DNA of 64,000 nucleotides. It comes from Octopus vulgaris (taxonomy: Eukaryota). The translations under genes and the position numbers were made by a program. The notes beneath the pieces are model-generated. The model searched no databases. It saw only the letters and a list, made by a program, of their open reading frames with translations, and was not told the DNA's origin. Location: positions 40,610,001 through 40,674,000 of the forward strand of contig OX597825.1 in the NCBI GenBank assembly GCA_951406725.2. Direction: 5' to 3'. Positions 10,223 through 63,680 of the stretch are shown here, piece by piece (position 1 is the stretch's first letter; every line of letters starts with the position of its first letter).

Positions 10223-10290
10223 CTGATGATGATGATGATGATGATTATGATGATGATGATGATGATGATGATGATAATAATAATAATAAT
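10100..10290 (+). repeat. (GAT)n/(AAT)n microsatellite (LINE tail or target)
   Basis: Directly visible. Confidence 0.95.
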
Positions 10291-10797
10291 AAATGCTCTG
10301 ATGCAGTACAAGGCAGTGGCTTCTGATCTTAACTGATTGGAAGTGTTATCATGTACATTGTTTTGTCTTGGTATAAAAGATGGGCTACAGCAAATATTCT
10401 GCTCAATACCACAGATTTGCTTGTCAGTTATTTGCCCTTAATCATTTGACCATGTCCCTTAGTGGGGGAGCATCATAGCCATGTGTTGAGTGGGATTCTT
10501 TGAGGTTTGAATAATTCACCACTGCAAACTTGAGTGTTTTGTTCAATATCGTTAAACAACCCTTATTCAGGGACCTTTTGAGCGGGATAGGTTACTCAAC
10601 CAGAAGAAAATTCTAACTGGACCCCACCTGCAAGGTCATGCGCTGTTTACTTTGATATGAGATCACCATGTCGCGTACACATGGTTTTGATGCATGTGCC
10701 TAGTGTACCCTTATCAGAAGGGTAGTCACGATAGTATACTGGGCTTCGTATATTTTACCCCAGTATCACTTTGATGGCATGCACTGCTCCCTCATTC

Positions 10798-10800
<3 letters not shown>
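10291..10800 (+). mobile_element. Non-coding ~0.5-kb (AAT)n-embedded retroposon, copy 1
   Basis: Homologous to 11628, 12738, 28935 and 32135; (AAT)n on both sides; no ORF. Confidence 0.85.
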
Positions 10801-10861
<61 letters not shown>

Positions 10862-11627
10862 TTATAACAATTAGATGCAAGAAATATAAGAAAACGGATA
10901 ACCACTACCTTTAACCCCACTCCACCCCACCACCACAAACTCCACTTTCTTAATGATTCACCTGGAAAAATAGCCGCAAGTGAGGTAATCCCTGTTCATT
11001 GTGCTACAGCATGTGTAAAGTGAATTCCATCACAAATCACAACAGAAATGTTATGATTTATAGAGAAGGTGAAACGTGTAAATGTTCCCATTTGGTATAC
11101 ACAGTGGAATGCACTAAACCTAATTTGTTCTATGTTGGTTGTACAATAGAATAATTAAATAAATGATTCAATGAGCGTAGATATGACGCCAGGCACAATA
11201 GCTGCAGTTTGACGGAACTTGCCGAACATTATATAATAAGCGGCTTTAATTTTGAGGAGCACCTGAAAGTACATATTCTCTGAAAATATTCTGAATCTAC
11301 TACACTTTCATTCATGAAAATGATTGAGAAGAAATATATTTGCGAATTACTAACATCGCATCCTGGAGGAATTAATAAAATGAGAGGGGAATTTCTAAAC
11401 GGGAACGCAGGATCTTCTCGTTCAATATTTGAAGGTTGGCGTTTCTGCGGTACTTTTCATTTTATATTTGTAACCTGAAGACAGACAATCCTTTGAAATA
11501 TTGCTCTATCCATTAAATAAACACTATATTACAAATTGCATTGCGTTGTTCTTTTACCATGGCTACAAGGCCTGTCTAATAATAATAATACTAACATATT
11601 ACGCTGCAGCATGTTTTGATATACAAT

Positions 11628-11937
11628 ATGGGCTACAGCAAATATTCTGCTCAATACTACAGATTCGCTTGTCACTTGTTTAACCTTAACCAGTTGAGCA
11701 TGTATATTGGCGGCTGCGATATGTGCATCTCTGATCACGAGCAGAAGTCGTGCGGGAGCATCATAGCCATGTATCGAGAGGAATACTTTGGGCTTTGAAT
11801 AATTCATCCTTGGAAACAATGGTTGTGATGCATGTGCCTGATGTAACCTTATGAGACGGGTAGTCATGGTGGGTATATTAGGCTTCCTATATTTTTACCC
11901 TAGTGTCACTTTGTTGACATGCACCGCTCTCTCAATC
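11628..11937 (+). mobile_element. (AAT)n-embedded retroposon, copy 2 (5'-truncated, internal deletion)
   Basis: atgggctacagcaaatattctgctcaatac...gtcactttgttgacatgcaccgctctctcaatc. Confidence 0.85.
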
Positions 11938-12043
11938 AATAAATCAATCTATCAATCTATCAATCAATCAATCAATCAATCAAACAACAACAATAACAAC
12001 AACAACAACAACAACAACAATAATAATAATAATAATAATAATG

Positions 12044-12622: not shown

Positions 12623-12687
<65 letters not shown>

Positions 12688-12737
12688 GAAGAAGAAGAAG
12701 AAGAAGAAGAAAAAGAAGAAAAAGAAGAAGAAGATCC

Positions 12738-13250
12738 CTGATCTTAAGTGATTGGAAATGTTATTAAACATGTTTTGTCTTGGAGTCAAAGATGGGATGC
12801 AACAAATATTCTGCTCAATACCACAGATGTGCTTGTCATTTGTTTGACCTCAAACAGTTGAGAATGTCCCTTGGTGGCTGACAGTATGCGTGTCTCTAAT
12901 AACAAGCAGAAGTAGTGGGAAGCATCATAGCTAAGTGCTGAAAGGAATTCTTTGGGGTTTGAGTAATTTACCTCTGGAAACATGGTGTTTCGTTCAACAT
13001 CCTTAAACAACCATTATTCACGGACCTTTGGAGCAGCATGGGTTACTCGCCTGGATATAATTCTAAGTAGGCTCCTCATACAAGGTCATGCACTATCTAA
13101 CCTGATAGGGAATCACCATGTCGCACACATGGTTGTGATGTATGTGCATAGTCTACCTTTATCAGACGAGTAGTCATGACGAGTATATTGGACTTCGTAT
13201 ATTCGTACTCAACTGTCATCTTGATGGCATATCCTGCTCTTTCACTCAAT
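12738..13250 (+). mobile_element. (AAT)n-embedded retroposon, copy 3
   Basis: ctgatcttaagtgattggaa...gatggcatatcctgctctttcactcaataat. Confidence 0.85.
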
Positions 13251-13439
13251 AATGATAATAATAATGATAATAATAATGATAAGAAGAAGAAGAACAACAA
13301 CAACAACGAACGCCTGGTTAAAGATCACGAGATGCATAAAAACCTTCATTCTGTCACACAGTTGAGAAAAAATTGCCTTTGATTTCATGTGTGATACCCA
13401 GCCTAAACAACCAGCGAGAAATGCGACAAGTGTCTTGCC

Positions 13440-17423: not shown

Positions 17424-17638
17424 ATCCTTTCTACTGGAAACACAAGGCCGCATATTTGAGGAAGGGATTAAGTCGATTACATCAACCCCAGTGCGCAAAT
17501 GGTACTTATTTAATCGACCCTGAATGGATGAAAAGCAAAGTCGACCTCGGCGGAATTCAATCTCAGAACGTAGCGACGGACGAACTACTGCCAATCATTT
17601 CGTCCAGCGCACTGACGATTCTGCCAGATTTTGCCCTT
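17424..17638 (-). mobile_element. Meta-domain SINE
   Basis: ggtacttatttaatcgaccctgaatggatgaaaagcaaagtcgacctcggcggaatt. Confidence 0.85.
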
Positions 17639-17804: not shown

Positions 17805-18015
17805 GACGGTGAGCCGACAGAATCGTTAACACGCCGAACACAACGCTCAGCTGCATTTCGTCTATCCTGACATTCTGAGTTTAAACTCCGGCAAGGTCAA
17901 CTTTGCCTTCCATCCTTCGGGGTCGATAAAGCAATTACTAGTTGCGCACAGGGCTCGATGTAATCGACTCAACCCGTCTCCCGAACTTGGCCGTCTACCA
18001 AAATTTGAGATCAAT
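17805..18015 (+). mobile_element. Meta-domain SINE
   Basis: gacggtgagccgacagaatcgtta...ctttgccttccatccttcggggtcgataaa. Confidence 0.8.
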
Positions 18016-21012: not shown

Positions 21013-21013
<1 letters not shown>

Positions 21014-21230
21014 AAATATAATATGTGACAATTATTTGGTAGCATGATAAACCTCCGAATTTCGGATGTCGAGGTGGAAATCTACGCCGGCTATGAAAAA
21101 AGATCTATTTTTCATAGCGTTTTTTACGATGACCCGATAACTGAAGAGATGCTAGCGTGGGTTTCCGCCCCGACATCCGAAACCCGGAGGTTTACCATGG
21201 CTACCGAATAATTGTCACATATTATATTTA
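21013..21230. mobile_element. Foldback element (~75-bp inverted arms) with a hammerhead-like core in the right arm
   Basis: atatgtgacaattatttggtagcatgataaacctccgaatttcggatgtcg... pairs with ...cgacatccgaaacccggaggtttaccatggctaccgaataattgtcacatat; ctgaaga at 21141, gaaac at 21179. Confidence 0.75.
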
Positions 21231-22667: not shown

Positions 22668-23075
22668 AATAATTATTATTCGAGGGAATAAAATCCAAAC
22701 TTACAAGGAAAAACAATTCAATTTAGAAATACTAAATCAAATTACACACAATATAATATGTATATAAAATATTAGAAAAAAACACCATTTATCTATTCAA
22801 AATGAATAATTAACTTACACCATCTAGAAAATTACATATAATAGAAAAGTTAAAATTAAAATAACAATTAAAAAGTAAAGATTAAGTAAATTGCAAAAAT
22901 AATAATAATAATGTATCTACCTATTATATACATTTTTATTATTATTTTTGCAATTTACTTAATCTTTACATTTTATTGTTATCTTAATTTTAACTTTTCT
23001 ATTATATGTAATATTCTAGATGGTGTAATTTAATTATTCATTTTGAATTGATAAAAGGTGTTTTTTTATCTTATA
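22668..23075. mobile_element. AT-rich foldback element: ~90-bp head + ~300-bp near-perfect palindrome
   Basis: Arms 22771-22916 and 22928-23072; head ccaaacttacaaggaaaaacaattcaattt shared with 33733 and 44330-44398. Confidence 0.8.
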
Positions 23076-23076
23076 T

Positions 23077-23112
<36 letters not shown>

Positions 23113-26598: not shown

Positions 26599-26638
26599 CA
26601 TTATTATACATATGTATATATATACTATCTATACCTGT

Positions 26639-26865
26639 GGCGGCGAGCTGGCAGAAACGTTAGCGCGCCGGGCGAAATGCTTAGCGGTATTTCGTCTGTC
26701 GTTACGTTCTGAGTTCAAATTCCACCGAGGTCGACTTTGCCTTTCATCCTTTCGGGGTCGATAAATAAAGTACCGGTTTCGCACTGGGTAGATGTAATCG
26801 ACTTAATCCCTTTGTCTGTCCTTGTTTGTCCCCTCTATGTTTAGCCCCTTGTGGGTAGTAAAGAA
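26639..26865 (+). mobile_element. Meta-domain tRNA SINE, well preserved
   Basis: ggcggcgagcTGGCAGAAACG...GAGTTCAAATtcc; central gcctttcatcctttcggggtcgataaataaagtacc resembles the Meta/MESC SINE core. Confidence 0.9.
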
Positions 26866-26897
26866 ATATATATATATTACCTATATTATTATTTATA

Positions 26898-26949
<52 letters not shown>

Positions 26950-28920: not shown

Positions 28921-28934
28921 TTTTCGTTTTCCTT

Positions 28935-29305
28935 CATGCCATCAGAGTGAAACTGGAATAAAATATACGATGCCCAGTATGCTCATCATGTCTACCCATC
29001 TGATAAGGGTACACCAGGTACAAGCATCATAACCATACGTGAGCGATATTGTGATCGCATATCAAGATTAACAGCGCATGACCTTGAAGGTGGAGCCCAG
29101 TTAGAATTTTTTCAGTTCGAGTAGCCCATCCCGCTCAAAAGTTCTCTGAATAAGGGTTGTTTGAGGATGTTGAACGAGATACCCACGTTTCCAAAGGTGA
29201 ATTATCAAAATACCAAATAATTCCTCTGAACACATTGCTAAGGAACATGCTCAACTAGTCAATGCCAAACTGACAAGCAAATCTCTGTAATAGTAAGCAA
29301 AATAT
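28935..29305 (-). mobile_element. (AAT)n-embedded retroposon, copy 4
   Basis: catgccatcagagtgaaactgg...gacaagcaaatctct is the reverse complement of copies 1-3. Confidence 0.85.
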
Positions 29306-29353
29306 GTACATGTATTATTAATATTGTCATTATTATTATTATTATTATTAGAG

Positions 29354-29419
<66 letters not shown>

Positions 29420-31990
29420 TTTACTTTTAATCCGCATGTTTGTTACAATCACTTGCCGAGACATACCCAGCCTGCTAAGGCGTGTGATGGCTAAGAGATG
29501 ATACAGTCTGAGTGAAATCTTGTCGAGGGAAATGGCAAAGGAAGTAGCGAAATATGTTTAAGTAATACAACACAAACATTTAAATTGATAGTGTTTTTCT
29601 AACGATGTGGGCAGTAATTGTTAGCACAATCTTATGGATTTCTCTGCGACATGGTTCACCTGGAATATTATCAAGATTTTTTTACATTCCCTTCTTATCA
29701 AAACTATGGCCACTAAAATAACAGGAACAAATCTCACATCTTTTGTATAGCTACTTAATTTGTCAAATTATCTTACAGATTTAAATTGTGTCAGTTGGAA
29801 AACATATCTAATAGTCTACAAGTATCTTTTCCCCTGTCTTTAATGACTATGTCTCGTCGATTAGCTTGGATCATTCTGTCAGTGTTGACTGGAAATTCCC
29901 AGAGGATAGTGACATTTTTATCTTCAACGACTAACTCAGAATGACGTTCATACCAGTAACAGGAGTGCTGATTTTGTAGTGCTTCCATATTTTCCAATAT
30001 AAATACTATCCTACAATATAGTGATGATTTTTGCATTCGTTTGGTGTAGGCACAGTACACCCCGAGACGCGATGGTCTATTGTATCATCAAATGTATCAC
30101 AGAATCTGCATTTTGGGTCAGAACTGTTTGGAAGAACTTGGTAGTTCTTTTGGTAGTTTTTTTGTTAGCAAACTACAGTCTTGTGCTGCTAATATGAGCC
30201 TTCAATCTCTGATTTCAGCCCTGAGCTTCTCAGCATCTGATGGGTTGTTGCTTGGTCTACATTATTTTGGTTTCGAAGTCCATATGTTGACTCCAGCGCT
30301 CCTAAATTTGTTTCTGCCCGTTCTTTTTTGCAGTTTGTTTGATCAGTTTTGCTTGTTTGGTGGCAGTCTCAGGTTTTTTTTATCTAATTCAGGGTGAATG
30401 CCAAGTTCCCTTTCAATTTTGCAAACCTTTTCGACTATAGAATGTGATTATTTACTGCTTTCGTGTTTGCGCACAAGCCGCACCATCCAATCCTTTGTAC
30501 TAGATAAATACGTGTTCATTGCTATTGAGGAGGTATTTTAGTACCGTTCTGCCTGCATCATTCCACTTCCCCCATTACTTCTAGGTAGGTACAGATGATC
30601 AACATCTGCTTTTGGGTGGTGCATGTTCTTAGACGTTAGTCGTTTTCTTGCCTTCCTGTCTTGGCGTTGGTGCTCTGTAAGATTCTAGTTAATGAACTAT
30701 ATTGGACTAATGAAAGTGCCAGAGTGTTAATGGCTTCGATGCGATTTTTAGAGTTGAGTTCAGTTTTAGTATGAGTTTTACTCTCTTGTAAAACTCTTTT
30801 CTTATTTCTCCTCAGAGTAGCATATTTTATACCATCTCCTTCGTTTATCCACGGATATCTTTAGCTTTCTTGTGGGTCAAGCTCCTTAATCGTAGTGTCG
30901 GTATCTAATTTAATGGAAGCTATTAGCTCGAGCGAGCATCTTACAAAAGTTGCTTATCACACTTGTCAAAGCCATAATCCATCATGCTGAACTCTTGAAC
31001 AGTTGTTAACAGCCCTACTAGCTCTTCGACATTTCTAGAAAACAGCTTGAGATGGCTCATATAAAATAAATGGCTTATCATAATATACACTTTGAACCCA
31101 ACCTGGTGTTCCTGAATTCGTTTGAGGGTGCGATCAGTGCCATGCAAAAGATTAAAGGGGAGAGGGAGTCACATTGAGAGATGCTTCGTTTGATGTTGAT
31201 GCTGTTAGATTGGTTCATCCCATTACTATGGTGTAGAAGGAGACATGTATTCCACTTGGCCATGCTACATTGTAGGAATTGGGCGACGACAGGAGAGCCC
31301 TTATATATCTCAAGAGCTTTGAGTAACCAGTTATGTGGGACTATATCAAACGCCTTTCCTGTAGTCTATCCATGACATATTCAATTTCTTCTTTTTGCTC
31401 CGGCAATTTTCTACAATCATATTATTTATAATTGATATTTTCATCCATAAGAATTCCTTTTACAATTATTTGAGCATGTGGGAGGATAGAGTTCAGTTCA
31501 AGGAAAGTGTGTATACTTTCAGTTAGTATTGATGCGAGGATCTTGTGGTTGGTAATAAGACTTGTTATTGAGTGGTAGTTCTTTGAAATTTTCGTGCCTT
31601 CAGTTTTTGGTAGAAAATATGTTGTTCCTTCAGTCAGCCAGACAGGTATTTGCTCTGGCCTCTGGTTGACATCAGTTAGGGTTGCAACAATATGTCGGTG
31701 TACTTCGTCAAACATTCAGCCAGAAGTTAGGGATCTGGTCCAGTCTTAGCTGTTCTACTCTTATTGCCTCCCATTTCTGCTCTTCAACTTCATCCAGTTT
31801 CACTTTCTCATGTTCTATCTAGTGAGCTTCGGCATTATATTCTTTTTTGCTGCTCTATATCTTCTTCCAGAACACTTCCATTTCCTCAGTCATAGATGAC
31901 TCTTTTACTTCTATCTTGCTTTTGACATTTTTCCTATAAAATTTCCTGCATCCGTCTTGAATACCATGTTATTTCGATAAAATTTGATTT
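29420..31990 (-). mobile_element. Dong/R4 LINE, 5'-truncated (RT, CCHC, RLE, 3'UTR)
   Basis: IPVWLTEGTTYFLPK, DYRKAFDIVPHNW, ISQCDSLSPLIFCMAL, SHLFYMSHLKLF, TILWEFPVNTDRMIQANRRDIVIKD, TAHIVRKTLS; (TAC)n/(TAA)n tail. Confidence 0.92.
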
Positions 31991-32009: not shown

Positions 32010-32098
<89 letters not shown>

Positions 32099-32134
32099 TA
32101 TTATTATTATTATCATTATTATTATTATTATTAT

Positions 32135-32674
32135 TGAGTGAGAGAGCAGTTCATGCCATCAAAGTGACAATGGGGTAAAATATACGAAGCCCAATATACC
32201 CATCATGACTACCCGTCTGATAAAGGTACACTAGGCACATGCATCACAACCATATGTGCGCGACATGGTGATCTCATATCAAGATAAACAGCACATGACC
32301 TTGCAGGTGGGGCCCAGTTAGAATTTTCTTCAGGTTGAGTAGCCCATCCCGCTCAAACGGTCCCTGAATAAGGGTTGTTTAACGATGTTGAAAGAACCAC
32401 CCATGTTTCCAGAGGTGAACTATTCAAACCCCAAAGAATCCCTTTCAACACATGGCTATGATGCTCCCCCACTACTTCTGCTCGTGATCAGAGATGCACA
32501 TATCGTCAGCCACTAAGGGACATGCTCAACTGGTTAAGGTCAAACAACTGACAAGCAAATCTGTGGTATTGAGCAGAATATTTGCTGTAGCCCATCTTTT
32601 ATACCAAGACAAAACACTTCCAATCAGTTAAGATCAGAAGCCATGAGAGCCACTGCCTGGTACTGCATCAGGGC

Positions 32675-32679
<5 letters not shown>
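32135..32679 (-). mobile_element. (AAT)n-embedded retroposon, copy 5 (most complete)
   Basis: Minus strand aaatgccctgatgcagtaccaggcagtggc...gaactgctctctcactcaataat; (ATT)n on both sides. Confidence 0.9.
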
Positions 32680-32735
<56 letters not shown>

Positions 32736-32737
32736 TG

Positions 32738-32881
32738 AGAAGAATATTTGGTGTATCCCATCTTTTATACCAAGACAAAACAATGTACATGATAGCACTT
32801 CCAATCAGTTAAGATCGGGAGCAATGAGAGCCACTATCTGGTACTGCATCAGGGCATTTATTATTATTATTGTTATTGTTG

Positions 32882-32973
<92 letters not shown>

Positions 32974-33098
32974 TGAGAAGAATATTTGGTGTATCCCATC
33001 TTTTATACCAAGACAAAACAATGTACATGATAGCACTTCCAATCAGTTAAGATCGGGAGCAATGAGAGCCACTATCTGGTACTGCATCAGGGCATTTA
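32738..33098 (-). repeat. Two near-identical 5' stubs (~120 bp) of the same element, tandem with (ATT)n
   Basis: gagaagaatatttggtgtatcccatc...ggtactgcatcagggcattt at 32736-32860 and 32975-33098. Confidence 0.9.
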
Positions 33099-33119
33099 TT
33101 ATTATTATTGTTATTGTTG

Positions 33120-33205
<86 letters not shown>

Positions 33206-33732
33206 ATTGTCGTCGTCATCATCCGCAGCAGCAGCAGATTGAGTTTCTAATGTATGTTGCCCGGATGTATTATGTTAGTAAACAAATTACAACTTTTGAC
33301 ATGGAATGGCGAGCTTTCGCTGATTATTCTACACAGGTATCTTCTACTCTTGCTACCTGTTTTTACAAAATGTCGAGAGCTTCTCTAGCAATAATTCTCG
33401 TATAAGCATCTCTGCATAGCATATTATGATGTTACGATCAAGTTTTAAAGATTCGGTTTCAAGTATTTTTGTCATCGCTTCCAAGGCTACATTTCTGTGG
33501 TTCTATAAATTGTTAAGCATCTGAATGTAGGTCAATGTTAATGCTTACATTTTCAGCTAAATCTCAATCATTTGACACAACTTTTAGAAATTTAAGTAAA
33601 AGAATCGAAAACGTATTTCTAGCACCCTTTATTACGACGAGTTCAGGGTGGTTGAAATACCTCTGATCATAGATATTTTGAATCACTGTTTACCAGGAGT
33701 AAAAAGGGACATGAAACATATATGTATATATA

Positions 33733-33799: not shown

Positions 33800-33839
<40 letters not shown>

Positions 33840-34231
33840 TAGAGAAAACCACTATTATGTAATTCAAACAATGGTAGATATAAATCATACCATATAGAAT
33901 AAATGAAATTTATGATACAACATTTACCTAGATCACAATAAAATACATAATAATAAATAAAAGTATATATTAAGCAAATTGACCTGAGGAAGTGACTATA
34001 GTTTCAAACTGAAATGATTTTGGATCGATTAAATTTAAATTTAATTGTAATTCTAATTGAAGATATAGCCACGAAACGTACGTAGTGTATTTACTAATTA
34101 TATACTGTTTATTTATTATGTACTTTATTGTGATCTAGGTAAATGTTTTATCTTATATTTTATTTTTATGTATTGTATGAATTACGTCTGTCATTGCTTC
34201 AATTACATAATATTGGCTTTTCTGTAATTTA
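33733..34231 (+). mobile_element. Foldback element with a central hammerhead ribozyme
   Basis: Head 33733-33803, (TA)n, inverted arms 33836-33983 and 34085-34231 enclosing the hammerhead. Confidence 0.8.
33971..34097 (+). ncRNA. Type I hammerhead ribozyme with long stem II
   Basis: CUGAGGA (33984)-a-GUGaCUAUAgUUUCAA...UUGAAGaUAUAGcCAC-GAAAC (34073)-GUAC-GUA; predicted cut after 34084; stem I imperfect. Confidence 0.75.
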
Positions 34232-34288
34232 TATATGTATATATATATATAGCGATATAGAGAAAAACATACACATAGATAGATACAC

Positions 34289-39027: not shown

Positions 39028-39420
39028 TTTCTACTCTAGGCACAAAGCCCGAAATTTGGAGGAAGAGATCCAGTCGATTAGATCGACCCCAGTAGGCAAC
39101 TGGTAGTTAATTTATCGACCCTAAAAGGATAAAAAGCAAAGTCGACCTCGGCGGAATTTGAACTCAGAACGTAGTGGCAGACGAAATACCTATTTGTTTA
39201 CTACCTACAAGGGGCTAAACACAGAGAGGACAAACAAGGAGAGACAAACGGATTAAATCGATTATATCGATCGCAGTGCGTAACTGGTACTTAATTTATC
39301 GACTCCGAAAGGATGAAAGGCAAAGTCGATCTCGGCGGAATTTGAACTCAGAACGTAATGGCAGATGAAATACGGCTACGCATTTAGCCTAGCGTGATAA
39401 CGTTTCTGCTAGCTCGTCAC
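39028..39420 (-). mobile_element. Two Meta-domain SINE units in tandem (dimer or nested)
   Basis: aactggta..taatttatcgac..aaaggat..aa.gcaaagtcga.ctcggcggaatttgaactcagaacgta occurs twice (39100, 39282) with different tails. Confidence 0.85.
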
Positions 39421-49030: not shown

Positions 49031-50649
49031 TTCTCATTGTTTATTTTACCACGGCCTTCGAATTGATGGGGCGGGGACATCTTTTTATGAAAAGTAAGTT
49101 TTGAGAATATTTTGTAGAATATTTTATTCTCCACTCCGGACTGATTTTGGCCAATATTTTTTGCACTTCAAAGCTATGGCAGGAGCCTTTTCGGTAGAAA
49201 TATATTTCAAAATTCGCTGATATTTTTAGAAGGAAAAATGAGTGATTTAAAGGAGATTTGGCTGCCGTTTCTAGCACATCTTAAGACAATCCTTCGCGTT
49301 TCTTTCTCACAATGTATTGAAGTTTTTCAATATCTTTCTCCACATAAATACATTTATATTCTATTACAAATGTGAAAAATTATGATTATTTTGCAACCTC
49401 ACTCACTGCCTCCGACTGTTTCTAATTTAAAACACTGGTGATATTGAGAATGTGAATGCTCATATTTATCCAGTGATTTTTAAAAAGGGGCTATGTAAAC
49501 CATAATTCGTTTCCATTGCATACTTTTCTGATAGAAAATGTGTTTTCATAGGCACACATGGCTTCGCTTGACTGAGATGGGGTTAGAAATTTACATTAGT
49601 TCTTTTGTTGCTTATAATCCACCAATGGACAACACGTGCGTTACTTCGGCATAATAATTCCATAAAATATGTTTGATTGGAGACAAAATTGGAAAGAACA
49701 TCGATATATGCGATGATGCAAGAGTGAAAATAGAGGGGTGTTTGGTTGTGCTAGAAACAACAACCAACTCTCCCTTGAATCGCGCACCTTTTCGTCTGGA
49801 TATATTCACAATTTTTTCACCGAAAAGGCTCCTCCCATGGTCTTTATTTCTTTCAGTAATTTATCGTAGTTGTTTGCAAATAGTGAATTAAAACTTGAAG
49901 TATAAACCTTAAAGTAGAAAGTGAGAGGTTTTGCAAAGGAAAACGGAAAATTTAACCGTTGCTACGTCAATACCTGGAGTTCATGTTGAAAAACCTTTTT
50001 AAAGAAGTGAATCATAGATATAAAGCAATATTATTTATTTTTAATAAAAAAACAGAAACTGACGACCCTATTATGTATCCGAGGTCAAATTACTCATGCA
50101 TTCCAATTATGGAAGCATTCGCGCAGCCCTTTTCGCGTGAAAAGGGAATACACTCACGCACAGGTGTATTTTATATATATATATGTATGTATGTGTATAT
50201 ATATATATATATATAATATGTACAATTATATTTATATATATATATTTATGTATGTATGCATGCATGTGATGTATGCGTTTGTTTTTGTCACTCTGAAATT
50301 GAAAACGGCTTGGTTTTTTAATGTTCGTGTATCCAGACACTTCGGCTAAATATGGATCATACTTAAATATGGATCATGCTAAATATGGATCGTACTTAAA
50401 ATACATACCGTGACCGACTTAAGTGACCAAATATTTCCTGCCAATGCCCTAGCTTGGTTGCAGTCTAGTGGCCGAATCAGATAAAAGAATACTGAAATGT
50501 TTATGTATGTCTTTGTGAATCGTCTTTATCAATACTCGAAGGATATGAATATCAGAATGAGAATGGAATAAATAAAGCAGCTACATGAGAAGTCACGATG
50601 TTTCTCTAAATCAAACTACAGAAAATTCTGTTCTATTATCAGTCTCCAA

Positions 50650-50855
50650 ATTTTGGCAAAAGGTCATCAATTTTGGCGGAGGGAGTAAGTCAATTATATC
50701 GACCACAGTGATCAACTAGTAATTTTTTTATCGACTCCGAAAGGATAAAAGGCAGAGTCGATCTCGGCAGAATTTGAATTCGAAACGTAAAGGCGGATAA
50801 AATGATGCTAAGCGCTTTGCTCCACGCTGTAACGATTCTACCTATTCGTCACCTT
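50650..50855 (-). mobile_element. Meta-domain SINE, decayed
   Basis: tatcgactccgaaaggataaaaggcagagtcgatctcggcagaatttgaa. Confidence 0.8.
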
Positions 50856-53324: not shown

Positions 53325-55975
53325 AGCACCCAAGAGCAACCTGACCTTGTAGTGAGGTAGGCATTGACGACTCTCTGTGAATACATAAGCACATTATCAC
53401 ATATGGAAAACAAATTCGTATTTCTTTTTGTTTCTTCTGATTTCAGTATTGTTTTCCTTACTCGTCCGTTTCTGCCTTGATTTTTATTCCCTCCAATATC
53501 AAGGACAATTTACACACAGCATTGCACAATAGTTTTCATTTCAATCTCGAGTTTTAACGTTGCTCTCACTGTCTTCTTTTGGTTCATAAGTTTGGTATTA
53601 ATCTTGACAAACCATCTGCATGTCTCAATTTTTCGATAGCAAATACTTCATCTTGAAGTCGTTATTCAGTAGGATCGTTCCCCAGCGCTGCAATCTGTTG
53701 ACTGCATGAGTGGGAATATCCGGTTTTGATCCATAGATAGACGAAAGTGGGAGGCGGTCTGTCTGCAAATGGAACCTTCTTCCGTGCATTAAATGTATGG
53801 AATTTTTTACTGCAAATATGATGGCTTATGCCTTTTTTGTATTTGACTTTAGTTTTTCTCAGCCGACTATAATGAACGCAAAGCATGAGCTACTGCCAAG
53901 CTGCCATCTTCATACTTGTGTAAAATCACAGCTCCAGTACCAGTTTCACTATCATCTGCTGCCACTACTATTTCCAAATTCGGGTCAAAATGGGATAACG
54001 ACAATTCCGACGTTAGGGCGTTTTTAATTTCTTCAAAGGCTTTTAGTCATTTGTCCGACCAGTTCCACTTAACGCCATTTTTAAATAGGTTTTTTACAGT
54101 GCTCTTAAATCGTGTATATTTGGTATGTATACTTGGTACTTATTTGAACATCCCCAAATGCTTGTAACATTGTAATGTTCGGCGGGGGAGTCATAGTTTT
54201 TAAATTGCTCGCCCTAGTCGGGTCTAGTCTGCGTTCATTTCCATTTATAATCTGCCCTAGATATTTTATTGTTGACATAACAAATGCACACTTTCGAAGA
54301 CCTTTTTGACATGCACAGCATACTGACCACGAGATTCACTTTTTATGAGGATGTCGTCAAAGTAAGCTGCGAGAATAATGTCCATAATTTGTTGGAAAAT
54401 ACCAGGTGCTACATTTATACCAACGGAAAGTCGATTGAATTTGTACAAACCTTCATGTTTATTATCAATAATTTTGAACATTCCTCATCGACATTTACCT
54501 GCAAATATGTTTCAGATAGGTTCAACTTTGAACACAATTTTCCTCCATTCAACTTTGCAAAAACATCTTCCAAACTTGCTAACGGTTAACTATATGACAT
54601 CAAACATCTGTTTAATCCCATTGAGAAATCAGTGCCTACTCGGATTCTATTATTTTTTCTTGATATAAACTGCCAGGGATGCCCAGTTTGAGTAATCAAT
54701 TTTTTCAATAACGCCAATTTTTACAAGTTTATCCAATTCTTCGTTGACTTGATTCAACGCTGCGAAAGTTAACATTCTTTTTGGTTTAAATACCGGTGTA
54801 GCGTTTTCTTTCACTTGAAACTTCGCCTCTGTTTTGGTGCAAAGATTGAATTCCTGACAAAAAAAAACTTCAGGAAAAGTTTGTTTTAATTCATCTTATA
54901 AATTTTCCGACGCCTTATTTTTACTGACAGAAGTACCATTTATATTCATACAAAAAATATTTATGGGTAGGTCCCATATGTTACATAGCTCCATCCAGAT
55001 TTTTCCAAAAAATTTGTAGTATTTTTTCTAGGTTTTTTCCACGAAATGTAACATCGCTTATCATTTCGCCCATAAAATGCAATTGTATTCATGAAACACC
55101 TCACACACTTATCACAGTTTCCTTTAATCGAGGTTTCTTTAATTTTAACCATGCATCTGTATTAATTACTGTGGTTTCACTGCCTGTATCCAATTGTAAC
55201 TTGATATTAACATTATTCATGTTTATGGACACAAGATTTCTTTTCTGAGCCTCGCTTAGAATTATTTTTATCAATACATTCTTTCTAGAATGTTTTTATG
55301 TTTGTCCCTTTTTCTTGCCACTGTACGATGTGAGATTTTAAGCCCGATTTTTCCACGATCAAAACATTTACGATTTTTTAAAGGGTCAATTACTTTTAAA
55401 ATGTAAATCTTTGCAACCGTAGCATGGATTTGGCCTTAACTTTCGTTTTTCTATTTTCTTGTCCCTTTCAGGACGACACGTATGTATCTAAGAGCTATCT
55501 TTTTCTTCAATTGTATCTGCGTCACGTCTTAAATTTATAATCCTCTTACATTCTTGAGCCACTGCCTGTAGAATTAATTTTTGGTTCTGTTCTAATTTTG
55601 ATAATAAACGGAAACGTATATCAAAATCTTATCTTGCTTTCACATTTGAACAAAATTAAACATTTGAATAAATCTGGGGTTAATTCATATAATTTGAATT
55701 TTTCAACTCCGTTAACAACACCAGGATATGTGACAAAATCATCATCTTTAACTAAATTTAAACATTGACAACAAGTATTGAACAGGGAACTTCTTTCACT
55801 AAACATTCTCGATAACAAATTAACTGTTTCATCGAAAAAAATCTCACCTGATTTCTTCGGAAGAATATAGCTACAGTATTTTTTGTGTTCGGCAGAGGAT
55901 AACTTTCTTAAAAGTAGGTGCACCTTTTCGTCATTCTAATTGAAGATTATTCGTATATTCGAAAATATGAATCTG
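53325..55975 (-). mobile_element. Gypsy/Ty3 (K02A2.6-like) retrotransposon remnant: gag-CCHC-PR-RT-RNase H
   Basis: HLLLRKLSSAEHKKYCSYILPK, CYGCKDLH, LQLDTGSETTVI, GLYKFNRLSVGINVAPGIFQQIMD, YFDDILI, AVAHA, SICDNVLMYSQRVV; many stops. Confidence 0.92.
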
Positions 55976-55977
55976 TC

Positions 55978-58100
55978 TACATTACGGGTACCAGATCTGT
56001 TCCTAACGTAGTGTGGTTCTCCATCTCAGTGTCATACTTGCCTGTCCTATATATTTATGCTCACAACCTGAGCAAGCTATAGCATGAATTAGATTCTCGG
56101 AAGCACAAGTGAAGTTGGTTTTAATTGTGAACTTTTCTCCTTGTTTGAATAGGAATTCTGCGCTTCCCAGTAGGTTTGGGCATGTTTCACAGTTTGGGTG
56201 TCCACATTTTTAACCGTGGGTTTCATTAGTTGTTGTGTAAAGCTTCGCATTTGTTAGAAGTATTTTTAACGATTTGTGTTGCTTTTTGCATTTGATGAAA
56301 ATATGTGTCTTCAGAATCTTGTTCATTTTGGGGTCTCTAGAGGGCATAGGTAGATTTTGAACAAGTTCTGTATACCTCATTGTTTCTAGAGTTGTGAGTG
56401 ATACATGCAGTAGTATTTTGAAATGCCTTTAGCATTTTAATGTTTAATTTCTCAGCACGCTTAATTCCATCATTTTAAGTGAGGGTGGATATTGTCTTTC
56501 ATTTAATGTTGTTCTGAGGTCTTGAAGACGAAATTCCCTAGTATTTCTATCAGACAATATTGTGCAAATCCTTTTTGCTAAAATAAAGGGAATATTACTT
56601 TTGGTGTGTTTTGGGTGGCATGAGCTATACAGGAGATATTGTTTCGAGTCCGTTGGTTTATGATAAATGTGAGTTACTATTTAGGTGTTGAATTTTTTAT
56701 CATGTCCAAGAAGGGAGCTGTTCTTTGCTATATTTATTGTGAACTGAATGATAGGGTTTATATTATTTAGGATTGATTGCACTTCAAAAAGTTTATCAAT
56801 GGTCTCCTTTCAAATGATAATGCAGTCATCCAGGTATCTTTTCCAGTTCTTACTTATATAATTAGGAAATGGATATCCATATTTTTGGAGTAACATTTCA
56901 TATATAGCAATTTCAAAATAACCAATAATTAGGTTCGCAAGAACAGGAGCTGCTTTCGTTGCCATCGCAATTACGCATTTTTGACGATTGTAGGTGTCAT
57001 CAAAAAGGAAATAATTGTTCTGAAGTATAAATTTTATAGATTCACTAAAGACCTAGTTTATGCGTTTCAGAAATACTTTGGGGTACTTTTATAACCAGAA
57101 TGTTAGTGCTTCTATTCCATAGTCATGTGGATGTACGTATAACGATTAATATCATCGAAGGAATTCAATAATACTTCTTCATTAGTTGTTTTTGGTAGGT
57201 GCTCTAGCATGTCTAAATCGACTCTAATGAAATATTTGATATATTTCAGCAAGGGTTTCAGTAGAATGTCTCGAAAATTGCTTAGGCGGTGGAATTCAGA
57301 GGCTGGACTTGCTATATTGAGGCTTACCTTTAAGTCTTCTGGTGCTTGGATAATTATCTATTTGGCTCGTGATTGTATGCAGGCTTCATTAACTATTTCC
57401 TCTTCTATATTTTAGGTAGACCGTAAAAAAGACTAGGTTTACATTTAAAGTTCGTGATATAATCTATTTCTTTTTCTGTCAGGCCTTTTCCACGTAGTAT
57501 TAAGGATGCTAGATTTTTCATATTTTTTTGTTGTTTATAGTTGACAACTTTTTCGGAGAAGGTATAGTTTTCTAACATAGATAATGCTAGGTTTTCGTAG
57601 TATTCTGTGTCTATTAGGACTGCAGCACTTCCTTTGTCTGCTTCTTTAATTGTCACTTTCTTGTCGTTTTGCAGTTCAATTAGATTTTTCCATTCTGGAT
57701 TGTTGAGATTTGAAGTAATGTTTCGGTTATGGAAAATATTTGGGGAATTTTAGATATGGTCGCAGAAGTCATCTAGTGTTTTATTCTTACGTTTAGGTGC
57801 AAGATAATTACTTCTGATTTTAACTAGTGTTTCATCCTCGTTGTTTTAGTCAGTTAATGCTTCTGTGAGTCGTAGTTTCCTGCAGAATTCCGAAATATTG
57901 TCTTTAATTTCATTCTGGTTAAATCTTCATGGGGCTGGGGTAAATTTTAATCCTGTAGCTTGTATACTGATTTCTGTTGCACAGAAGGTTTTTTTGTTCA
58001 ATTTATTTTTGGCTTTTTCCTGTATGTTTTGTTCCAACGTGTATCCTTGTTCCTCTCCACTGGGTCTAAAATGTTTTTACTGTAATTTGGCTGGTAGAGG
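55978..58100 (-). mobile_element. Penelope-like element (Neptune-type RT + GIY-YIG), decayed, 3' end lost
   Basis: GLKFTPAP, IKEADKGSAAVL, FYGLPKI, IAMATKAAPVLANL, WKRYLDDC, Cys linker KCGHPNCETC, LIHAIACSGCEHKYIGQ. Confidence 0.92.
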
Positions 58101-59100
58101 TGGTCAGCGTTATTATTGTTATTAATTTTATTAGCATTGCTGGGAGGCTGGTGTTGCAGTTTGGGTAAATTAGTTGGAAGTACGTGGTTCGGGTTTCATC
58201 GTTGGAATAAGTTGTTGGGGGTACTTAATTATGTTTGAGATACTGACGTGGTTTTGCTGTCTGGGTAAATTAGGTTGAAATTCCTTCATTAGACGTTTCT
58301 AGTTGCTGGGGAGAAATAATTACTCCTAAACCTAGGTTGGTTTCTTTTAGTTTTTCTTATTAGTGAGTTGTCCCTATTACTACACATTATCCTGATTGTG
58401 TAACTATATAGACCAGACGGAGAACCATACAACATAGGAACAGATCCGGTTCCCACAATACAGACAGATTCCTTTGAGTGATCACAAACAGAGATGTTAA
58501 GTTTATATCCCACCGATCGCCACATTTCTCACCATCTACCACAGTAAAAACAATTTCTATACAAGAACGCCTATATAGAAGAAATTAATTCATCAAAAAA
58601 ATGTAGAACACGTCTAAATATGAACGCATGACCAAATTTAATTTCAGTATATATTTTAATTCAGGATTACATACCCATCACTATACGAATTTTCTTCGCA
58701 CTACTTCAGCATTTGAGTTTTTGTGTATATTCTATCCGCTCCGTAAAATATGAACAATTACCACTCCTATCCCCTATAATTACGATCACTAATTCCCTCC
58801 CCTTAATTTTTCTATTGAAATCACTCATTCATAAAATTCTACACACTCAAAATGGACTAAAATCTTAAAAAATACGAAATTACAATAATTTCAAAGTCAT
58901 GATTAGCAAAAGCAAAACCGGTCGACAAACACAATAAAACATATATTAAAAAGTATATTAAAACTATGTAAATTTTGAATATTTTCCTTCTTTTATTTCA
59001 CATGTGTGTGTCTTTGGGTGAGTATGCTTGTATGTGTGGGTGGATGTGGGTGGTTGTGTGTCTGTAAATTAATATAAACAGGTAGGCACAATATAATACC

Positions 59101-59169
59101 ATGTTTGTGCCTGATAAATATGTAGTTTGTGCCTGATAAATATGTAGTTTGTGCCTGATAAATATGTTT
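59101..59169 (+). repeat. 23-bp tandem repeat x3
   Basis: gtttgtgcctgataaatatgta repeated. Confidence 0.9.
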
Positions 59170-59642: not shown

Positions 59643-59720
<78 letters not shown>

Positions 59721-59722
<2 letters not shown>

Positions 59723-60480
59723 CTTATAGATAAGGGCTAAACATTTTATCCGCCGGCTTCCCAGATTTCAGTTTTTCGTGTTTTTTTCCTGTAGCGAGTA
59801 AATAATGTGAAAATTGACGATTTAATAGTCTGTTATCAGCATATTGGCATTGAAATAATTTTCTTTAGCCCTTATTTATAAGTTGTTTATAATTTTAACC
59901 GTAAAGGTATTTTAATATACTGCTACATTTTTTGATGGAATTTTTCTGTAAAAAAAAATTCATCCTATATTAGTAGTAGACTTATTACTACTCGCTATAG
60001 GGACTGGTAACCACTATAACCGGTAGTGAAGAAAAGTCAACACGTTGCGCTGAGGCTGACCAAAGAAATTTATTTTTAGATATATCTGGGGTACTTAAAT
60101 GTACTCATTTTTTCTTCGGATTTTTTTCCATGGGCGCATGTAAGTATCTTACATCCTTTCGTATGTTCTACTGAAGAGGAAAGAATATTTTATGAGATTA
60201 ATTCCGAAATTGATTCAAAATAGAAATAACGAACTTTAAAAAAATGCTATCGGCCGGCTTCCCCGATTACAGTTCTTCGTGTTTTTTTCCTGTAGCGAGT
60301 AAATAATATGTGGAAATTGACGATTTAATAGTCTGTTATCAGCATATTGGCACTGAAATAATTTTCTTTAGGCCTTACTTATAAGTTGTTTATAATTTTA
60401 ACCGTAAAGGTATTTTAATATGCTGCCACATTTTTTAATGGAATTTTTTCTGTAAAAAATACTTCATCCTATATTAGTAG
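59721..60480 (+). mobile_element. Non-coding 1.5-mer element (501-bp period) with an inverted 5' stub and a degenerate hammerhead
   Basis: Direct repeats 59747-59976 and 60248-60480; 59721-59741 is the reverse complement of ~59865-59885; hammerhead-like 60166-60225; (TA)n on both sides. Confidence 0.85.
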
Positions 60481-60481
60481 C

Positions 60482-60522
<41 letters not shown>

Positions 60523-60528
<6 letters not shown>

Positions 60529-60711: not shown

Positions 60712-60736
60712 ATATATATATACATACGACAATATA

Positions 60737-60780
<44 letters not shown>

Positions 60781-60781
<1 letters not shown>

Positions 60782-61009
60782 CTTTACTACCCACAGGGGG
60801 CTAAACACAGAGGGGGACGAACAAGGACAGAGAAACAGATTAAGTCGATTATATCGGCCCCAGTGCGTAACTGGTATTTATTTAATCGACCCCGAAAGGA
60901 TGAAAGGCAAAGTCGACCTCGGCGGAATTTGAAGTCACGACGTAGCGACAGACGAAATGCTGCTGAGCATTTCGCCCGGCGTGCTAACGTTTCGGCCAGC
61001 CCGTCGCCT
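60781..61009 (-). mobile_element. Meta-domain SINE, well preserved
   Basis: Reverse complement of the 26639-26865 family. Confidence 0.9.
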
Positions 61010-61039
61010 TATATATATATATACACACACATACATTCT

Positions 61040-62354: not shown

Positions 62355-62418
<64 letters not shown>

Positions 62419-62485
62419 GTTGTTGTTGTTGTTGTTGTTGTTGTTTTTGTTGTTGTTGTTATTATTATTATTGTTATTATTATTA
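62340..62485 (+). repeat. (ATT)n/(GTT)n microsatellite (tail of the minus-strand Dong)
   Basis: Directly visible. Confidence 0.95.
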
Positions 62486-62486
62486 T

Positions 62487-63680
62487 GTACTTTTAATTTG
62501 CAAGTTTGTTACAGCATACTAGGGCGAGTGAAGGATAAGATATGTTACAGCATGGCTGAAAGCTTTTGGAGGGTAAGTGGCAAGGGCAGTAATAAAATAT
62601 CTTCATGCAATATAACACAGACATTCAAATTGATAGGGCCTATCTAAGCATGTGGGCAGTACTTGTATTTCTCTGAGATATGGTTCTCCTGGGATATTAT
62701 CTAGATATTTCTGACCTCTCTTCCTTGTCACACCTATGGCACCCACAATAACAGGAACAGTTCTCGTTTAATATGCCACATCTTTTGTGTTTCAATTTCC
62801 AGGTCCTTATATTTATTTAATTTGTCAAATTCCTTTACGGAAATATTTTTATCAGTGGGAACACTTACATTTATTACTCAACAAATATATTCTTCCCTGT
62901 CTGTAATGGCTATGCCTGGTCGATTAGACTGGATCTTTCTGTAGCTGTTGATTGGAAAATCCTAGTGGGTAGTGACATTTTTACCTTCAACAACTGACTC
63001 AGGATGATGGTTATACTAGTAAGTAAGAGCGCTTATATTGTAGTATTTACATAGATTCCAGTGTAAATTTTGTCCTAACATATTGTGGGGATTTTTGTAT
63101 TCGCTTGATGCCAGCCCAGGACATCCCGAGAGACGGGATGGTCTGTTGTTTCATCAAATTTACAGCGGAATTTGCATTAAAGGTCAGAAACGTTTTGAAG
63201 AATATTAGCCTGGTAGTTTTTGGTCAGCAAGATATGATCTAGTGGCGCTAATATGAAACCTTCAGTCTCTGCGTTCAGTCCTGCACTTCTCATCCACTGA
63301 TATGTTGTTACTTGATCTACATCAGCATTTCAGCTTCGAATTATATACTGTCCCTGCAGAGGCTTCTGGCTCCACCGCTCCTCAATTTGTTTCTGCCCGT
63401 TCATTTATGCAGTCTGTTTGATCCGTTTTGCTTGTTTGGTGGCAGTGGTTTCAAGTTCTTCCTCTTACAAATTTGAAAGCATTCGTGTTTCCACACAAGC
63501 TGGAGCATCTACTTCTCTGAAATAGATATTTATTTGTTCGTTCCTATTGTGGATGTTTTATAGCACACTTCTACCTACATCATTCCTTTCCCCCCATTAC
63601 TTCTAGACTGGTATAGGCGATCAACATCTGCTTTTGGTTTGTGCATTTTCTTAGATGATTGTTGTTATCCTCAGATATTT
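62487..63680 (-). mobile_element. Dong/R4 LINE 3' fragment, related to the 29420 element
   Basis: PKADVDRLY, GLNAETEGFI, CKFRCKFDETTDH, QSNRPGIAI, KYKDLEIETQKMWHIK, VPVIVGAIG, TAHMLR*ALS; 3'UTR similar to 29420-29460. Confidence 0.88.

Follow-up and report, generated by a model that had tools for sequence, protein, structure and literature searches.

A decayed copy of a 503-nt non-coding octopus repeat with a predicted hammerhead ribozyme, likely inserted in the manner of Penelope-like elements

Introduction

Two direct repeats, a short inverted arm and a hammerhead-like string lie between (TA)n tracts at positions 59721-60480 of a 64-kb stretch of Octopus vulgaris DNA (the whole stretch analysed, hereafter the window), raising the question of what kind of element this is and by which route it was copied into the genome. 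We propose, with a probability of roughly 0.75, that the locus is a decayed copy of a 503-nt non-coding repeat with a predicted type I hammerhead, likely inserted by the reverse transcriptase (RT)/GIY-YIG enzyme of a Penelope-like element (PLE) through two-strand nicking of (TA)n and priming at two fixed internal sites on an RNA longer than the unit. A literature search combining hammerhead with octopus or cephalopod returned no description of an octopus retrozyme family; the main text of the O. vulgaris repeat annotation (PMC13282606) does not mention hammerhead, ribozyme or retrozyme, and a giant squid paper only counts 235 hammerhead loci.

Results

Anatomy of the insertion

The insertion and its flanks comprise the following features:

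59644..59721, no strand: left target microsatellite, (TA)39, masking any target-site duplication
59721..59741, minus strand: inverted arm (stub), reverse complement of 59864-59884 at 20 of 21 letters
59739..59976, plus strand: R1, the 5'-truncated upstream unit (pseudo-LTR), 238 bp, overlapping the stub by 3 nt
59887..59891 in R1, equal to 60390-60394 in R2, plus strand: site A, the commonest 3' end in the family, followed by (TA)n
59977..60239, plus strand: single-copy part of the 503-504-nt unit, non-coding
60240..60480, plus strand: R2, the last part of the full unit together with the tail, 241 bp, from alignment to R1
60395..60480, plus strand: tail of ~86 nt, from site A to site B
60479-60480, plus strand: site B, right end of the insertion
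60482..60524, no strand: right target microsatellite, (AT)21.5, flanking the element

Aligned within the window, R1 and R2 are 92.1% identical over 241 columns (E 1e-96), with an offset of 501 at the 5' end and 503-504 further along. The original prediction had described two ~230-bp direct repeats 501 bp apart, a 21-bp inverted stub at the 5' end and (TA)n on both sides, a description that holds throughout, the repeats being slightly longer than stated. The stub is readable out to 59714 as a decayed site-A end, giving an arm of 21-28 nt, and a 22-letter stub probe allowed up to 3 mismatches matches only the stub and the two repeats, a result equalled by none of 100 shuffles. The sequence copied in the stub runs up to 59884; if two letters decayed towards TA, it reaches site A itself. 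Since this places the end of the stub no more than 7 nt from site A, and since the right end is site B, both insertion ends are read as 3' ends, site A on the left and site B on the right, with the ~86-nt tail at one end only. A short AU-rich hairpin has site A at its base. The unit is without coding capacity (longest ATG frame 20 aa; GC 32%), and no second copy of the element was found within the window.

An abundant and divergent repeat family

Evidence for a family was drawn from short contigs of eight public runs, of 24 runs listed, aligned to 59721-60481. At a likeness of at least 80%, four DNA runs under three organism labels yield 2,590, 2,024, 1,415 and 2,084 contigs; summed contig depth, used below, is not equated with copy number. 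With divergent contigs mapping to the element in their thousands, it belongs to a repeat family, and an abundant one. Both junctions of the unit are bridged by other divergent copies, 59976/77 in 5 of the 32 pieces shown and 60239/40 likewise in 5 of 32, with at least 31 letters on either side and 14-22 other letters in each bridging piece; at the family level the sequence appears continuous around the unit. None of the pieces shown holds two hammerheads, the longest (289 nt) being too short to do so. None of the 24 listed runs is catalogued as RNA; the four runs guessed to be RNA contribute 26-195 contigs each, which are not evidence of expression, and a motif scan of metagenome contigs and viral contigs gave 0 matches.

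Four letters common to R1 and R2 are in the minority in the family (59788/60289, 59826/60329, 59851/60354 and 59867/60370, the last also shared by the stub), and eight listed differences between them are private, 3 to R1 and 5 to R2. From these shared minority letters and private differences we infer that R1 and R2 came from one template and then decayed. The decay of ~4% per arm would, in a rough inference, correspond to roughly 10 million years (divergence scale: distance 0.09 = 25 My; PMC13282606).

A divergent relative of the unit was also observed in the RNA-guessed runs X17, X19 and X23, with loose ends at 59893, 59944 and 60190 and a similar spacing of 245-250 nt; it keeps the hammerhead core, and its helix I and helix II letters differ.

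A predicted hammerhead, apparently intact in the family and damaged in the studied copy

The ribozyme motif and its enclosing helix are located as follows:

60158..60233, plus strand: predicted type I hammerhead, the one descriptor match in the window
60166-70/60221-25, with distal 60158-62/60229-33, plus strand: helix I, from descriptor and folding
60171-77 and 60206-09, plus strand: hammerhead core, with helix II of 4+5 bp
60219, plus strand: position 16.1, A here and T in over 99% of family depth
59989-60003 pairing with 60287-60301, plus strand: predicted 15-bp long-range helix enclosing the hammerhead domain

A descriptor with helix I of at least 5, helix II of at least 4 and helix III of at least 3, and any letters at positions 16.1 and 17, was scanned over both strands of the 64 kb and gave a single match, its core starting at 60171; none of 200 order-3 Markov mimics matched. 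The scan recovers the fold that had been proposed at 60166-60225 between the repeats, and the suspected mutation of the cleavage-site U proved to be real, position 16.1 (60219) being A in the studied copy. A second private change, at 60187, breaks distal helix II. Helix III is near-palindromic with a 3-nt loop, and the predicted cut falls between 60220 and 60221. Rfam gave no hammerhead match in the 64 kb at gathering score or at E<=10 (weak unrelated matches only at E<=10), and the 61-nt motif of the studied copy folds no better than shuffles (z +0.34).

The original prediction had looked to the consensus for a restored NUH near 60219, and there it is: T accounts for 99.4, 99.9, 100.0 and 99.8% of depth in the four DNA runs. 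Furthermore, 60187 carries C in 93-98% of depth, which restores a pair in distal helix II. Because over 99% of family depth carries T at 60219, the family core appears intact at 16.1 and the studied copy is likely dead: its one ribozyme, with a changed core, is likely unable to release a monomer. Given T at 60219, and given that neither 60220 nor the other core places appear among the 40 of 67 differences listed for the DNA runs, the triplet at the cut is most likely AUA, with the cut after 60220. Position 60219 is not among the 40 of 64 differences listed for the RNA-guessed runs.

With majority letters at 60219 and 60187, the best predicted fold of the monomer (-17.6) buries the core, the active-type fold reaching -12.4, and the best two-molecule fold scores -38.7 versus -35.2 for two monomers. 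Because this two-molecule fold has double-hammerhead geometry while the monomer fold buries the core, the family ribozyme is predicted to be dimer-favoured. Modelled as a circle, the unit forms helices I and II with a predicted probability of ~0.75 for majority letters versus 0.05 for the studied copy, helix III being absent from the predicted circular folds of both, and predicted circular self-pairing has z -3.2 for the studied copy and -3.9 with majority letters. The long-range helix is predicted at -27.8 kcal/mol, a strength reached by none of 200 shuffles (a length of 15 bp alone is reached in 5 of 60), and two common family variants preserve its pairs as G-U.

Preferred 3' ends and inverted joins

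Site A (59891 = 60394) is followed by (TA)n in 24, 21 and 12 contigs of DNA runs X1, X2 and X4, and the RNA-guessed runs X7 and X19 add 4 and 7 such contigs; in DNA run X6 it is not among the loose ends shown. At site B (60479), (AT)n comes next in three X1 contigs and one X23 contig, and three further pieces end near it, at 60477-60479. The end counts derive from two listings, of 24 among 758 and 24 among 107 loose ends, in which site A exceeds site B by about 8 to 1 in X1. The 3' ends of the family thus appear not to be scattered, with two preferred sites ~86 nt apart lying against (TA)n; the freely permuted copy endpoints for which the original prediction had proposed a test were not borne out, and the two preferred sites resemble those of PLEs. 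The stub-R1 junction, present as one contig each in X1 and X2 (two of the four DNA runs) at depths of 55 and 38, is for that reason a feature of a single locus and not a family boundary.

Opposite-strand joints account for 5 of the 15 rows listed, of 24 in all, in the DNA runs, one of them explained by the internal helix, and for 2 of 7 in the RNA-guessed runs. The joint 60286/60396 is found in X17 and X19 (two of the four RNA-guessed runs), and depth sums place the X19 joint contig on 60396-60480, with presence also at 60353-54 and none below 60286. By this depth arithmetic, at one locus, a second copy has the tail (60396-60480) as its forward arm, beginning 2 nt past site A, head to head with an inverted arm. 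Two primers acting on a single RNA would be expected to leave such a join, an arrangement called "twin priming", a name from L1 work. Several of the joints in other copies begin at 60283-60293, in the 3' arm of the long helix after a T run; truncation may be frequent there, or the position may reflect the edge of an alignment.

Neighbouring elements and other repeats

A decayed Penelope-like element occupies 55960-58450 on the minus strand, with RT, a CX4CX2C linker plus a GIY-YIG-like piece at the C-terminus, interrupted by many stops and frameshifts. This decayed frame, 2 kb upstream of the repeat, has its best matches in Octopus sinensis (74%) and O. bimaculoides (64%), and the element has relatives in Octopus and Mytilus. 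Neither blastn nor local alignment nor a relaxed hammerhead scan linked it to the repeat at the DNA level, similarity staying within that of shuffles except in one of eight comparisons (31 versus a null maximum of 28), and Pfam gave no relevant family for its four stop-free pieces. All that the neighbour shows is that this genome contains PLE-type enzymes.

The window has a high AT content and many microsatellites. A dispersed ~620-bp repeat, 74-87% alike, lies in triplet microsatellites at 10235-10857, 11612-11942, 12629-13285, 28933-29305 and 32076-32735, and a 238-bp near-perfect tandem accompanies it at 32677-33208. Three self-inverted segments (21013-21230, 73%; 22751-23095, 90%; 33807-34259, 75%) are possibly other two-armed insertions. 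A short dispersed repeat with at least 6 copies (60712-61033, 17428-17627, 17807-17975, 26611-26943, 39028-39418 and 50647-50839) is presumably SINE-like. Two 1.3-kb copies of a further repeat, 69% alike, are at 29313-30647 and 62379-63669, and a 22-bp unit occurs in three exact copies at 59103-59167.

Discussion

Proposed insertion mechanism and template

Insertions of PLE type are marked by a partial tandem with an inverted 5' arm and by two preferred 3' ends bounding the tail at a microsatellite target, all of which are found here. Having no ORF and fitting this pattern, the element likely borrows a PLE enzyme. The reverse transcription by a PLE-type RT put forward in the original prediction is thus supported by the stub, the partial tandem and the two 3' ends; its circular RNA is one of several candidate templates, and free permutation of ends is not supported. 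In the mechanism that we propose, a Penelope-like RT/GIY-YIG enzyme would introduce nicks into the two strands of a (TA)n tract, with priming at two fixed internal sites on longer-than-unit RNA; the site-B primer would copy 742 nt, or 1.47 units, across the ribozyme, the site-A primer would copy 21-28 nt, and the two cDNAs would be joined head to head over the 3-nt overlap. Candidate templates are a circle ligated after hammerhead cleavage of tandem source copies, an uncut linear multimer, and cut monomers bridged by a jump. Synthesis of the RNA by Pol III is unlikely for the full unit, since no consensus A or B boxes are present in it and it has 10 T-runs; no tRNA genes were found.

Because the long arm, at 1.47 units, crosses the predicted cut, a single cut linear monomer cannot be the template without a jump. 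A ligated circle is tentatively favoured, at somewhat less than even odds, because the core is conserved (U16.1 and the helix II letters are kept in nearly all family depth), because circles have been demonstrated for mussel, coral and axolotl retrozymes (PMC7229834, available text) and because linear copying cannot lengthen an array; the 1.5-mer as such is explained equally well by a linear multimer or a template jump. An uncut linear multimer is possible as template, if rather unlikely, and we think it similarly doubtful that the element is an internally deleted PLE copied, with no circle, from uncut linear read-through RNA, the hammerhead being a passenger from the parental pseudo-LTR. The order of ribozyme, site A, tail and site B does match the Anolis PLE, in which uncut RNA was the main template and RNA ends were not found at the cut site (PMC11167929, available text), and RNA-guessed pieces extend past 60220/21, although contigs cannot show ends. 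Against this stand the retention of U16.1 and helix II in nearly all family depth and the inability of linear copying by itself to extend a 1.5-mer, together with a weak point: the divergent relative (loose end before 60190) keeps CTGAAGA while ~7 of 22 neighbouring letters differ (~0.07 by chance, in a rough count).

A jump between cut monomers is improbable. Here the RT would start at site B on a hammerhead-cut monomer, jump from its 5' end to a cut 3' end and copy almost another unit, which would suit the stop of R1 at 19-21 nt before the next cut position (~4% by chance, at one locus and noticed after the fact) and, weakly, one other contig whose forward arm starts at the equivalent place, 60240. 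Yet other inversion joints begin elsewhere (60114, 60286-60290 and 60396), the loose ends shown have no cluster just 3' of the cut, and the studied copy has no indel at 60220/21. Reading R1 and R2 as the LTRs of a miniature LTR element (TRIM or LTR retrozyme) would account for a short non-coding middle between two direct repeats, but is very unlikely and largely refuted: the hallmarks whose presence the original prediction had named as refuting it are absent (no TG..CA, no primer-binding site beside R1, no polypurine tract before R2), the 5' end of R1 is no family boundary (depth 0-83 versus over 100,000 a hundred bases on), other copies read straight through both junctions, and the ribozyme is of type I and outside the repeats, where the class has type III inside the LTR. 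The chance that a one-off local duplication happened to carry a hammerhead-like string, which the original prediction had named as its other undoing, is slighter still; the studied motif does fold like shuffles, has no Rfam match and no second copy in the window, but the thousands of divergent family contigs refute it, the majority restores the core, none of 200 mimics gives the motif, and both unit junctions are bridged elsewhere.

Should the circle reading be true, genomic copies would directly record retrotransposition that was twin-primed and templated by a circle, and circles combined with two-site priming would test the still-hypothetical copying of retrozyme RNA by a Penelope-like enzyme. 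The most specific version, a 503-nt octopus family with a dimer-only hammerhead, whose protected RNA circles are copied by a Neptune-type Penelope enzyme from two fixed sites at once and whose tail is two to three times the usual length, is speculative and has the odds against it. The class is already known, the studied copy is old and broken and its value is modest; what it adds is a cephalopod family to the known retrozyme/PLE class.

Comparison with known systems

The comparisons below refer to the available text of each source. In PLE insertions the full copy is preceded by a truncated one, a 5' copy is inverted, one end bears a tail of 30-40 bp, and there is a bias to microsatellites (Craig et al. 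2021, PMC8557442). A PLE protein in purified form introduces nicks into both strands of AT-rich DNA, and synthesis begins at two internal positions that delimit the tail, hammerhead cleavage being dispensable for insertion in vitro in the one PLE tested (Frangieh et al. 2024, PMC11167929). With these endonuclease-bearing PLEs (PMC8557442, PMC11167929) the octopus element has in common the 5'-truncated copy before the full unit, the inverted 5' arm, the one-end tail, the microsatellite targets and two apparent internal start sites downstream of the hammerhead; unlike them, it has no ORF and a tail of ~86 nt versus 30-40, and its site A is AU-rich, whereas the Anolis PLE has an AC-rich stem-loop (PMC11167929).

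With metazoan non-LTR retrozymes (Cervera and de la Pena 2020, PMC7229834), among which a mollusc example of 350-390 bp is known from Mytilus, the family shares a non-coding, AT-rich unit (32% GC), a type I hammerhead, the absence of LTR, PBS and PPT, head-to-tail continuity and strong predicted self-pairing. Cleavage and circles are demonstrated for those retrozymes, whereas the octopus family is known from sequence and the single ribozyme of the studied copy is damaged. The monomer had been thought longer than those of animal retrozymes, which is so against the 170-400 nt of PMC7229834 (503 nt here) but not against the consensus range of 51-972 bp in a survey that proposes a PLE origin for animal retrozymes (Li, Clavereau, Pollet 2026, bioRxiv 10.64898/2026.07.22.740005). 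In the available text of that survey the species groups named include no mollusc, monomer-like dead offspring are common and 1 of 9 retrozyme dimers cut when assayed; the studied copy fails its rule for "active" elements, two consecutive intact hammerheads. The survey draws its PLE link from pLTR homology and co-occurrence, whereas in octopus the link lies in insertion anatomy only.

Like dimer-dependent type I hammerheads (Cervera and de la Pena 2014, PMC4209133), the octopus motif has a weak near-palindromic helix III and a G10.1-C11.1 pair, and the best predicted fold of the dimer is a double-hammerhead; unlike them, it lacks an additional base separating positions 9 and 10.1, and its helix III is longer, at 3 bp plus the 15.1-16.1 pair versus 1-2 bp or none. 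By its sequence, then, the family has the features expected of a retrozyme and the studied copy would be a dead derivative, and the element likely behaves as a non-autonomous PLE that belongs to the non-LTR retrozymes.
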